Source: a virus. Taken from it: 10,288 nucleotides of DNA. The stretch is taken from the UHGV virus genome UHGV-0129999; one strand, 5' to 3'. This document shows, piece after piece, positions 5,452 through 7,769 of the stretch (position 1 is its first letter; each line of letters begins with the position of its first letter). The notes under the pieces are model-generated. The model saw only the letters and a program-made list of their open reading frames with translations, was not told the origin of the DNA and searched no databases. The position numbers and the translations under genes were made by a program.

Positions 5452-5735
5452 TAGCACTCCACCCAGGCGTGCTGAATGTCAGATATAATCGGCATACTCA
5501 AATCACTCCTAACGATATGAGTCATCACCAGAAAATCAGGATTAATGCGCCGGACTCTTCCCGGCTGTCACACCGAATCGCCAGGATGGTGAGTCCCTGA
5601 ATCCGCTATCCTACCAACGGTGACTTGCACATTCCGGCTACCTGGTTTGTTGCCTGAGCTAGGGGAAAGGTTACCCCTTTAACGTCACCAGACCGCTAAC
5701 GACGCATGTGCCAGACGCCGTGTTACAACCAAATA

Positions 5736-5811
5736 TGGTGGCCCCTACCGGACTTGAACCGGTGACCGTGCGATTATGAGTCGCCAGCTCTAACCACTGA
5801 GCTAAAGGGCC
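5736..5811 (-). tRNA. tRNA-Ile (anticodon CAU, lysidine type; automated tools may label it tRNA-Met)
   Basis: Reverse complement GGCCCTTTAGCTCAGTGGTTAGAGCTGGCGACTCATAATCGCACGGTCACCGGTTCAAGTCCGGTAGGGGCCACCA (76 nt) folds as a canonical cloverleaf with encoded CCA; anticodon loop CUCAUAA; anticodon stem-loop nearly identical to E. coli ileX as recalled from memory. One G-A mismatch at the 27-43 pair. Confidence 0.85.
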
Positions 5812-6883: not shown

Positions 6884-7064
6884 CCTCTCACTCCATTATT
6901 TAACGAATAAAAAAGCTGCGGTGCCGGGTGCCTCCCGGTGTCCTTTGGCTGGTTATCCACCGTGGACGGGGAAACAAGGAGAAATGAATGGACTGATATA
7001 ACCATTTCCCCGCGTGCGCTTAGCCGCATTCACCGCAACGGAAAGAGCATTCTTGGTGGACCTG

Positions 7065-7088
7065 TAGATTGGGATATGAACCCGTTAC
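7065..7088. repeat. 24-bp motif TAGATTGGGATATGAACCCGTTAC, copy 1 of 2 (plus a partial third copy at 7901..7917)
   Basis: Direct observation: 23/24 identity with 7344..7367; core GGG-ATATGA-CCC is an interrupted palindrome, and on the - strand reads GGGTTCATATCCC (tRNA T-arm-like). Confidence 0.5.
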
Positions 7089-7343
7089 AGGAGAATGCTC
7101 TTACCTGTTACGTGCTCCGTTTCGTGGAGCTAACGGCGGGTGATCAGACCGCACCAGACTGGACTTATTTCAGCGTTATGCTCATGCCAGAGAATCAAAC
7201 TGTGATGGTCGGTGCTGAACTCCGACACAGGGTTGTAGCAAGCCCCGCAAAGCGCGCACTACTGTAGTTGCGGCACATCAGCCTGTGCATTCACCACAAT
7301 GTTGAGAACACTGGTTGTCACGCTGCCTCGCGACATTTATTCA

Positions 7344-7367
7344 TAGATTGGGATATGACCCCGTTAC
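7344..7367. repeat. 24-bp motif TAGATTGGGATATGACCCCGTTAC, copy 2 of 2
   Basis: Direct observation; flanked by an inverted repeat pair (AATGTTGAGAACA at 7298..7310 and TGTTCTCAACGTT at about 7363..7375). Confidence 0.5.
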
Positions 7368-7533
7368 GCCAATGTTCTCAACGTTGTAGTGCCGGTTACG
7401 GTTCCGGCCAGGCCTCTTCCTCAACGGGGTGTTCTCCATACGGACTACCGTTTATTGGTCGTTCCTGCGGTTTATGTTGTGAAGCCAGATGCTTATCTTC
7501 TGGTTGCTTCTAAGAGCTGCACTTCATCACAAC

Positions 7534-7607
7534 GGTAAGGGTACTTCGTAGGGATTCGAACCCTCTGCCAAGCTCGGCGATCTCCGACGTCGCAAAATAC
7601 CCTTACC
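7534..7607 (-). ncRNA. Non-canonical tRNA-like element (possible pseudo-tRNA or structured RNA) directly 3' of tRNA-Thr
   Basis: The - strand reads GGTAAGGGTATTTTGCGACGTCGGAGATCGCCGAGCTTGGCAGAGGGTTCGAATCCCTACGAAGTACCCTTACC (74 nt): perfect 10-bp terminal helix (GGTAAGGGTA / TACCCTTACC), canonical T-loop GGGTTCGAATCCC, but no recognisable D-arm or anticodon arm and no encoded CCA. Lies 8 nt after tRNA-Thr. Confidence 0.3.
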
Positions 7608-7615
7608 TGTTGTGC

Positions 7616-7692
7616 TGGTGCCGATTAACGGACTCGAACCGCTGACATCCTGCTTACAAGGCAGGCGCTCTACCAACTGAGCTAAACCGGCA
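7616..7692 (-). tRNA. tRNA-Thr (anticodon UGU)
   Basis: Reverse complement TGCCGGTTTAGCTCAGTTGGTAGAGCGCCTGCCTTGTAAGCAGGATGTCAGCGGTTCGAGTCCGTTAATCGGCACCA (77 nt): 7-bp acceptor stem, D-arm GCTCAGTTGGTAGAGC, anticodon loop CUUGUAA, T-arm GGTTCGAGTCC, encoded CCA. Confidence 0.85.
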
Positions 7693-7693
7693 T

Positions 7694-7769
7694 TGGCGAT
7701 GGTGGATGGATTTGAACCATCGACCCGTTGATTAACAGTCAACCGCTCTAACCGCTGAGCTACACCATC
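7694..7769 (-). tRNA. tRNA-Asn (anticodon GUU)
   Basis: Reverse complement GATGGTGTAGCTCAGCGGTTAGAGCGGTTGACTGTTAATCAACGGGTCGATGGTTCAAATCCATCCACCATCGCCA (76 nt): canonical cloverleaf, anticodon loop CUGUUAA, encoded CCA; separated from tRNA-Thr by 1 nt. Confidence 0.85.

Follow-up and report, generated by a model that had tools for sequence, protein, structure and literature searches.

The stretch of DNA analysed here, 10,288 nucleotides of the virus genome UHGV-0129999 (the window), carries a 74-nt element, here termed X1, close to the genes for tRNA-Thr and tRNA-Asn. X1 combines a terminal helix and a T-arm with an interior that is not that of a tRNA, and the question raised by this locus is what such an element is. 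Our answer, to which we assign a probability of about 60%, is that X1 is a structured RNA cassette with a tRNA-mimic cargo, and neither a tRNA gene nor a tRNA pseudogene. The window is a segment of a P1-like phage-plasmid; its identity in this region is 98.6-98.8% to P1 and 99.6% to Salmonella phage SJ46. The P1-like context given by a first-pass annotation was corroborated, and the element does lie on the tRNA strand.

X1 runs from position 7607 to position 7534 on the minus strand and has the sequence GGUAAGGGUAUUUUGCGACGUCGGAGAUCGCCGAGCUUGGCAGAGGGUUCGAAUCCCUACGAAGUACCCUUACC. Its terminal helix (GGUAAGGGUA/UACCCUUACC) consists of 10 perfect base pairs and lengthens to 15 bp with two G·U pairs, while inclusion of the flanks CACAAC (7614-7609) and GUUGUG (7533-7528), together with one bulged A, brings it to ~21 bp. 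The T-arm, AGGG-UUCGAAU-CCCU (7564-7550), is canonical and has the 7-nt UUCRANY loop of a tRNA T-arm. Only a 14-nt linker and a 4-bp hairpin, the loop of which has 4 nt, lie between the helix and the T-arm. When position 7607 is counted as position 1, the structure model comprises the closing helix P1 (1-15/60-74), the linker (16-29), the hairpin P2 (30-33/38-41) and the T-arm (44-47/55-58), with A59 unpaired. The 74-mer folded with a minimum free energy of -32.2 kcal/mol, compared to -20.1 ± 3.3 kcal/mol for shuffled sequences (z = -3.7, 0/200), and with its flanks it reached -41.6 kcal/mol (z = -5.85, 0/200 shuffles). The perfect 10-bp helix with a textbook T-arm, as well as the impression that the sequence does not look random, were therefore recovered as the first-pass annotation had described them.

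The same holds for its statements that X1 lacks a D-arm, an anticodon arm and an encoded CCA and that it follows tRNA-Thr (7616-7691) after 8 nt, the spacer being GCACAACA. Neither a D arm nor an anticodon arm with a 5-bp stem and a 7-nt loop is present in X1, and instead of a 7-bp acceptor stem with discriminator and CCA there is a helix of 15 bp (21 bp with the flanks), after which GUUG comes next. ARAGORN detected three tRNAs only in the window, namely tRNA-Met(cat), tRNA-Thr and tRNA-Asn, and the same three were found with Rfam at gathering score. A search of positions 7534-7607 against Rfam, including RF00005, returned nothing credible at E <= 10. A local ARAGORN run with relaxed and mitochondrial settings made no tRNA call on X1 at thresholds of 100% and 95%; at thresholds of 60-80% there were inconsistent low-score calls only. 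X1 is consequently not a normal tRNA, as had been supposed.

If X1 were what is left of a tRNA gene, its slot might hold an intact tRNA in relatives. We aligned P1, P7, Ro157c2 and RCS47, and read the tRNA-to-tRNA spacers in ten P1-like loci. The relatives had identical flanks and an identical outer stem around quite different interiors. P7 and Ro157c2 carried a 55-nt version in the slot, RCS47 carried both types, that of P1 and that of P7, as a tandem with ~130 nt between them, and further interiors were found in Klebsiella, Salmonella and E. albertii plasmids. No intact tRNA occupied the X1 slot in any of the P1-like relatives compared; other hairpins of the X1 family, with unrelated interiors, stood there instead, and additional tRNAs (Tyr, Ser, Arg) were located elsewhere in the array. 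Among 902 matching plasmids, about half had the P1-type element at >= 95% identity, and in 145 of them only the flanks aligned, at 60-80% identity.

The recurrence of one outer stem around different interiors proved to be the hallmark of a large family. Searching IMG/VR with a degenerate pattern that covers the 5′ flank and arm retrieved at least 120 contigs, and 85 distinct hairpins were taken from the matches listed. These X hairpins measure 51-141 nt, with lengths that are not multiples of three, and share the flanks CACAAC/GUUGUG, the bulged A and a stem of 13-15 bp that encloses hypervariable interiors of 25-115 nt. Their consensus is (G)CACAAC-A-GGUAAGAGCAUUG ... CAGUGCUCUUUCC-GUUGUGGUGAAUGC, which forms a clamp of ~20 bp made up of the flank, one bulged A and then GGUAAGRGYAUU.../...RRUGCYCUUNCC. 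X1 fits this pattern (CACAAC/GUUGUG, the bulged A, and GGWAAKNGYAUU with a complementary 3′ arm) and pairs throughout, and is demonstrably a member of the family. Usually, a second type of module, termed Y, lies directly 3′ of X; we distinguished 51 versions of it, 89-218 nt in length and with covarying stems.

Several lines of evidence showed that the structure of the X stem is selected at the RNA level. Across the 85 copies the flank helix was paired in >= 93% at each position. In a covariation set of 44 distinct arm pairs, 92% of the cells were paired and 6 of the 20 pairs had changed on both sides, giving a covariation score of 0.145; shuffles scored 0.090 (0/500) and slid partners 0.024-0.036. 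The non-Watson-Crick pairs of the stem, read on the tRNA strand, were G·U in 104 cases and A·C in 6. Furthermore, all 44 copies that have a tRNA within 1.5 kb are co-oriented with it, which points to RNA, and X1 is likewise co-oriented with tRNA-Thr and tRNA-Asn. The other 73 of the 117 X copies scored for this have no tRNA within that distance.

Modules of the X and Y types were found in P1-like, lambdoid, N4-like and Ackermannviridae phages. In a lambdoid late leader the order is Q gene, pR′, tR′ terminator, X, Y and holin, and the early-operon leader of mEp460-like phages has a Y module with another clamp hairpin. In the virulent N4-like phages and the Ackermannviridae, the modules lie within long, gene-poor regions that are associated with tRNAs and show no credible gene. 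A total of 148 phage records contained the X/Y junction, as did 628 of 5,426 complete E. coli genomes, and its annotation was always 'none' or 'hypothetical protein'. A scan of genome contigs with a degenerate 5′-arm pattern was dominated by chance matches: ~8 of 120 loci were real, a few of them matched on both strands, and these came mostly from Enterobacterales, with a few on non-enterobacterial contigs that are possibly contaminating. Rfam 15, searched with the window and 16 related loci, contained no family for X or Y, even at E <= 0.5, and X1 or its family appeared in no paper that we found, including by searches for literal sequence strings. A preprint on Pas-sRNA describes other prophage small RNAs and does not mention X/Y modules (10.64898/2026.05.13.724894). 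We class the X family with the tRNA-like stable RNAs of phage tRNA clusters, to which it is a new addition with respect to Rfam 15 and the literature found.

We then considered what the stem encloses. Variants of the X1 cargo were found by searching with the linker and then with the T-arm. This cargo, GCGAYGYCGGAGAUCGCC followed by 6-10 nt, GGY and AGAGGGUUCGAAUCCCUAC, recurred in at least five types of closing stem, some of them with alternative flanks (CCCAC/GUGGG and CGAAAUC/GUUUUCG) and some in non-P1 phages. Since it recurs in so many closing-stem types, X1 is not a decaying pseudogene. RNAalifold, applied to 20 variants of the X1 cargo type, predicted 29 pairs, 11 of which showed compensatory double changes. 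Of these pairs, 19 belonged to the closing and flank helix (two of them forming a small inner CG/CG pairing) and the others to the P2 hairpin and the T-arm; the P2 pairs survived changes from G-C to G·U and from G·U to A-U, and the reverse. Conservation almost base for base, combined with compensatory changes in the stems, is the sequence signature of purifying selection rather than decay. An alternative hairpin, UCGG/CCGA, which appears in the minimum free energy fold of X1, was rejected, as common variants break its pairing.

Mimics of tRNA parts proved to be a recurring cargo of the family. T-loop hairpins (UUYRANY with a stem of at least 3 bp) occurred in 16 of the 85 interiors, where 0.30 were expected and at most 2 were seen in 200 shuffles, and their stems, which covary, were of at least seven different kinds. 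A CAU anticodon-type loop was found on hairpins in 10 of the 85 interiors against 0.54 expected. Several of these hairpins contained GGGCUCAUAACCC, which we take to be the core of the anticodon arm of the E. coli initiator tRNA. In the window itself, two further X hairpins, X3 and X2, carry CAU anticodon-loop hairpins (GGGGUCAUAUCCC and GGGUUCAUAUCCC, respectively) that resemble this arm.

Perhaps the more remarkable feature of these arrays is a reading frame that resembles the tag of tmRNA. In many related arrays, X adjoins a conserved block that lies on its upstream or downstream side; after AUAAAU, this block has a frame of exactly ten codons resembling a tmRNA tag, and then a stop and a hairpin. 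Ten versions of the tag were recorded: ANDEQFLAVA, ANEEVYLAVA, ANDNTFLAVA, ANDDVILMAA, ANDDLMLMAA, ANDDVVLMAA, ANEEMYLAVA, ANEEMYLAAA, ANDDLMLAAA and ANDDQFLAVA. The E. coli tag is ANDENYALAA. The blocks were hosted by lambdoid, Stx-like and N4-like phages, by Ackermannviridae and by one P1-like contig, where the block lies upstream of tRNA-Asn. No tag-like frame was found within the window. On the tag blocks of relatives, Rfam gave a sub-threshold match to tmRNA_permuted only (21.7 bits, E = 0.033), the tmRNA mode of ARAGORN gave nothing, and there was no obvious aminoacylatable domain. A BLAST comparison of E. coli ssrA with the tag-containing blocks yielded insignificant same-strand matches (E values of 0.33 and 4) and one opposite-strand match with an E value of 0.002. 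A short stretch of the window, GCGGUCUGAUCACCCGCCGUUAGCUCCAC at 7115-7150 on the minus strand, is similar to the 3′ terminus of E. coli ssrA (GCGGGUUCAACUCCCGCCAGCUCCACCA), with BLAST support that is weak and comes only from the matching segment of a relative, L033 (E = 0.33).

The presence of the tag frame beside X prompted a comparison of the X1 cargo with the tRNA-like domain (TLD) of tmRNA (SsrA). The two share a three-way junction, a GG linker of ~14 nt, a second helix and a T-arm that abuts the 3′ strand of the closing helix. In contrast to the TLD, X1 has no CCA, its helix is long, and in place of G3·U70, the alanine identity pair, it has U-A at position 3; the tag frame adjoins X1-type cargo in related phages, but not in the window. 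In topology, X1 would correspond to the top half of a tRNA or to a TLD whose second helix is capped, which is a comparison of layout and not a result on homology. With tRNA (RF00005) X1 shares the T-arm sequence, the loop size, an end-to-end terminal helix and co-transcription with tRNAs, whereas it differs in the missing D arm, 5-bp/7-nt anticodon arm and CCA, in a helix of 15-21 bp instead of 7 bp, and in the silence of ARAGORN and Infernal.

The closest described analogue of X1 is the species 1 RNA of phage T4 (rnaC), with which it shares a 13-mer and its layout. This RNA, small and stable, comes from the tRNA cluster of T4, and its function is, to our knowledge, still unknown. Like X1, it is a non-tRNA element encoded on the same strand as, and directly downstream of, tRNA genes, with a canonical T-arm that includes the identical 13-mer GGGUUCGAAUCCC, lies just before the 3′ strand of the terminal helix and is separated from the 5′ strand by other hairpins; rnaC ends with CCGGGUUCGAAUCCCGG just before that 3′ strand. 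X1 has the same arrangement, being a non-tRNA element in a phage tRNA cluster with a T-arm that adjoins its terminal helix. Unlike X1, rnaC is 139 nt long, with a short and imperfect terminal helix; it has neither the conserved X stem nor the flanks CACAAC/GUUGUG, shows no similarity to X1 outside the T-arm and belongs to no known cassette family with swappable interiors.

Other known systems were more distant. YrlA (RF02553) also has a long stem formed by both ends and a tRNA-like module with a T-arm, but X1 has no D-arm mimic and no Rfam match to it, and the only match of the RF02553 covariance model spans two real tRNAs at 25.6 bits, compared to a gathering score of 69. The stems cleaved by RNase III in rrn operons and T7 early RNAs resemble X1 in that a helix of ~20 bp with a bulge or mismatch encloses an RNA and lies between stable-RNA genes, while the X stem differs in being conserved in sequence and not only in shape. 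X1 offers the approximately two helical turns of an RNase III substrate (6 + 15 bp with one bulged A), and cleavage itself is a prediction. Integron attC sites, finally, resemble X as imperfect palindromes (57-141 bp) that have an extrahelical base, keep their ends while the centre varies, and are arranged in arrays. There is no integron context here, however, and the evidence on X concerns RNA instead of single-stranded DNA. Integron core sites read RYYYAAC/GTTRRRY. The X1 flanks GCACAAC/GTTGTGA deviate from these by one mismatch each. X1 lacks what defines a tRNA, a tmRNA TLD, YrlA or attC, as it does for the antitermination elements boxA and put that are considered below.

A mechanism compatible with these data can be outlined. 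X1 would be made within the leader of the P1 ban operon, which is long and untranslated, and be co-transcribed with the tRNAs. The conserved helix of ~20 bp would clamp an interchangeable cargo domain, which in X1 would be a three-way junction of the GG linker, the small capped hairpin and a T-arm stacked beside the 3′ strand of the helix. With its ~21 bp, the clamp might act as a double-strand-specific (RNase III-type) site for processing or stability that parts tRNA-Thr from the downstream modules, and its cleavage would free the cargo as a small, stable and protected RNA. The T-loop could then, probably with the help of the linker GG, offer a surface like the tRNA elbow to a host factor, as a mimic or a decoy. 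A decoy role of the X1 cargo seems improbable to us at present, if worth stating. Equally speculative is the wider idea that the X and Y modules constitute a horizontally exchanged 'RNA display' system of enterobacterial phages. The clamp would then present swappable mimics of translation RNAs, namely the T-arm/elbow, the initiator anticodon loop and a tmRNA-like tag module found in some arrays, and these would serve to decoy or sponge up host toxins aimed at tRNA, defence nucleases or tRNA/tmRNA-binding factors; X1 would be the T-arm/tmRNA-TLD decoy of P1. If the cassette reading is true, structured RNAs, arrayed and co-transcribed with tRNAs, would occupy a stretch of P1 that has for 20 years been annotated as the orphan open reading frames upl and plp. 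Hundreds of P1-like plasmids, the prophages of more than a tenth of the complete E. coli genomes and unrelated virulent phages would then carry a new RNA family, one that is absent from Rfam and from annotation. It would also provide a handle on the purpose of the non-tRNA stable RNAs in phage tRNA clusters (T4 species 1 and 2) and bear on how phages counter tRNA-directed host defences.

A number of observations weigh against the reading of X1 as a cassette with a tRNA-mimic cargo. Among the cargo variants, the linker changed only by C19U, U21C and G30A, an invariance that is overstated, since the search patterns partly fixed both the linker and the T-arm. Most X copies carry a cargo without recognisable tRNA mimicry, and 'tRNA mimic' can therefore not be the function of the whole X family. 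The X copies are phylogenetically related, so the enrichment counts for T-loop and CAU-loop hairpins do not represent independent events, even though the motifs nonetheless occur in different scaffolds. X1 is dispensable in some P1-like relatives, as in L071, where an X3 hairpin directly follows tRNA-Thr. The RNase III-type function of the clamp was derived from the length of the helix only, and we propose it with reserve. In the literature on this interval, we found no data on expression, end mapping or binding. Lastly, the geometry of an RNase P substrate does not fit, as the T-stem of 4-5 bp would be stacked on a helix of 15-21 bp, while such substrates have a 7-bp acceptor stem and 12 bp in all. 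Of the earlier suggestion that X1 mimics a processing site, the RNase P version falls with this misfit, and the more general version may form part of the best explanation.

Taken on its own, such processing would amount to punctuation: hairpin and T-arm would be nothing but signals in cis, for cleavage (by RNase III, P or E) or stability, through which tRNA-Thr is matured and the mRNA downstream is protected, and the fragment set free would be inert in trans. The location of X1 directly after a tRNA, the helix of ~21 bp, the presence of the same cassettes in untranslated leaders downstream of terminators in other phages, and a highly variable cargo, as expected if its content were irrelevant, all agree with this. 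A content-neutral spacer would, however, not show the strong over-representation of T-loop and CAU-loop hairpins, particular cargo modules are kept across different stems, and the 73 copies without a tRNA nearby have none to process, which leaves this explanation rather unlikely. There is a slim chance that X1 acts on transcription like put or boxA, by keeping Rho or intrinsic terminators from ending a long untranslated transcript. Such an element could account for X copies in untranslated leaders just after terminators or promoters, and the consensus 3′ arm GUGCUCUUUCC includes the boxA-like core GCUCUUU; the P7-type arm, GCUCUUAC, presumably equals the boxA core of lambda nutR, which we counted in its favour. 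The arm of X1 itself, ACCCUUACC, is not boxA-like and is base-paired, leaving no single-stranded motif of the GCUCUUUA type; elsewhere the boxA-like motif is locked in a stable helix, and arm variants such as GCUCUGUCC break it. Nor does a single clamp with a free cargo match the layout of put, given that the HK022 put RNAs are ~70-nt elements of two stems with conserved bulges (PMC9378689). The chance is slimmer still for an element that operates as DNA and has no RNA function, such as a miniature inverted repeat, an attC-like cassette or a recombination hotspot. Conserved inverted ends around swappable interiors, near-identical junctions in unrelated phages, tandem and deleted arrangements that fit recombination between the repeated flanks, and flanks one mismatch away from the integron core would suit such an element. 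Against this stand the strand-asymmetric wobble pairs, the consistent co-orientation with tRNAs, the selected RNA motifs in the cargo, flanks that do not conform to GTTRRRY, and the fact that we saw no target-site duplication.

Two explanations put forward by the first-pass annotation did not withstand the comparisons. A decayed fourth tRNA gene, which would have kept only its acceptor stem and T-arm, is very improbable. Its T-arm is canonical, and an identical 19-mer occurs in real phage tRNAs. In addition, positions 15-31 of X1 (GCGAC-GUCGGAG-AUCGC; 7593-7577) match with both stem strands the anticodon arm of the tRNA(CAU) of the window (GCGAC-UCAUA-AUCGC; gene at 5736-5811), a hint that the cargo may be tRNA-derived; this match may be a trace of tRNA ancestry or a coincidence. 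The absence of an intact tRNA from the slot in every relative compared, the compensatory changes in a cargo kept by at least five closing-stem types, the negative ARAGORN and Rfam results and the homology of the supposed acceptor helix to the stems of 85 elements with non-tRNA interiors speak against decay. Even less credence can be given to a remnant 3′ tRNA half, the scar of an att site left by site-specific recombination at a tRNA gene. The T-arm and the 3′ strand are indeed the part that is usually duplicated at such sites, but here a matching 5′ strand 40 nt upstream encloses the T-arm within a complete, covarying hairpin, the 3′ strand matches no neighbouring tRNA, and the same cassette occurs in virulent phages, in late-operon leaders and, in most cases, away from any tRNA. 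A coding origin is just as hard to sustain: on the opposite strand, the P1 and RCS47 records annotate plp across X1, so that the element would encode the C-terminal region of its product. This frame has a TTG start, crosses the element and ends 30 nt inside tRNA-Thr, and its product matched no Pfam or PHROG family. In the window a stop at codon 82 precedes X1, and hence there is no open conserved plp frame at X1; P7 and Ro157c2 have a different, shorter interior and no annotated plp, and the stop-creating base of the window is also present in Ro157c2. The reading frames upl and plp (7076-7645 on the plus strand of the window; 1277-1846 in P1, L001) are wholly antisense to the array of RNA modules, and upl has PHROG matches to orphans only. 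Both may be mis-annotations.

Table 1. Positions of X1, its parts and the other features in the window, with the tag blocks of related loci in the last row.
Feature	Position	Strand	Evidence or remark
X1, closing helix and three-way-junction cargo	7534..7607	-	X hairpin family member
5′ flank CACAAC and bulged A	7608..7614	-	pairs with GUUGUG, 7528-7533
X1 closing helix, 5′ strand (positions 1-15), GGUAAGGGUAUUUUG	7593..7607	-	pairs with 7534-7548
14-nt linker with GG, CGACGUCGGAGAUC, in the place of a D-arm	7579..7592	-	near-invariant among cargo variants (in part through the search patterns)
Small hairpin P2, GCCG-AGCU-UGGC	7567..7578	-	RNAalifold, 20 variants
T-arm mimic, AGGG-UUCGAAU-CCCU	7550..7564	-	19-mer also in real phage tRNAs; 13-mer identical to the T4 rnaC T-arm
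X1 closing helix, 3′ strand, CGAAGUACCCUUACC	7534..7548	-	pairs with 7593-7607
3′ flank GUUGUG, common to the 5′ strand of the next module	7528..7533	-	fold, module alignment
TAA stop at plp codon 82, before X1	7511..7513	+	frame translation
tRNA-Asn(gtt)	7694..7769	-	ARAGORN, Rfam
tRNA-Thr(tgt), directly upstream of X1 in the transcript	7616..7691	-	ARAGORN, Rfam
Short Y-like module, GUUGUGAUGAAG...CUUCACAAC, right after X1	7476..7533	-	fold z = -1.4, weak alone
X3, second X-type hairpin with diverged, compensated stem GUUGAGAACAUUGG/CCAGUGUUCUCAAC; cargo includes GGGGUCAUAUCCC	7301..7382	-	fold z = -4.4
Y module, tRNA-shaped RNA of several helices; its hairpin loops AGGCUGAU and AGUUCAGCA are complementary	7199..7300	-	fold; 51 distinct Y modules
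X2, third X hairpin, GGUAAGAGCAUUC.../...GAAUGCUCUUUCC; cargo with GGGUUCAUAUCCC	7040..7105	-	fold z = -5.6
tRNA-Met/Ile(cat)	5736..5811	-	ARAGORN, Rfam
tmRNA-like tag blocks of related loci	L086 ~5625-5750 (-); L068; L033; L132 ~1790-1860; L133 ~1790-1860; L071 reverse-complement ~803

In the window, the modules follow each other in the order tRNA-Asn, tRNA-Thr, X1, short Y, X3, Y and X2 (Table 1), and no promoter-like or terminator-like site was found between the tRNAs and X1. The Y module is closed by a helix of 9 bp (GUUGUGGUG/CACCACAAC). Within it, a D-arm-like hairpin (GCGC-AGGCUGAU-GCGC) is followed by a variable centre and a T-arm-like hairpin (GCCGG-AGAUCAGCA-CCGGC). Its two loops are complementary to each other and covary, with GCUGAU/AUCAGC in some versions and ACUGAU/AUCAGU in others. 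GUUGUG can pair with either of two CACAAC copies, one located upstream of X and the other where Y ends. The Y module is unannotated and has no Rfam family. A hammerhead-like reading of UGAUGA in its 5′ strand was considered and rejected, as this stretch covaries as a helix strand.

The tRNA array of the P1-like relatives is itself variable: it has Asn or Arg(tct), in some cases Tyr, next Thr and, further downstream, Ser(tga) (L002, L004, L005, L009 and L010). In P7 (L004, 1264-1350) the tRNA-Ser(tga) gene is unannotated in its record, and P1 and the window are without it. On the minus strand of two other loci, L008 (~740-866) and L007 (~830-1030), we noticed tRNA-like genes that have a normal acceptor stem, a T-arm and CCA around an interior of 130-190 nt, on which ARAGORN made no call; they are possible intron-containing or hybrid tRNA-like RNAs. 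Compared with P1-type records, the window aligns as three separate pieces, which together extend over ~16 kb of the record, and ~5.8 kb of the record, apparently the dmt region upstream of the tRNAs, is missing from it. Downstream of the RNA array, genes for an SPFH/Band-7 lipoprotein and a small membrane protein are present in place of P1 tciABC.

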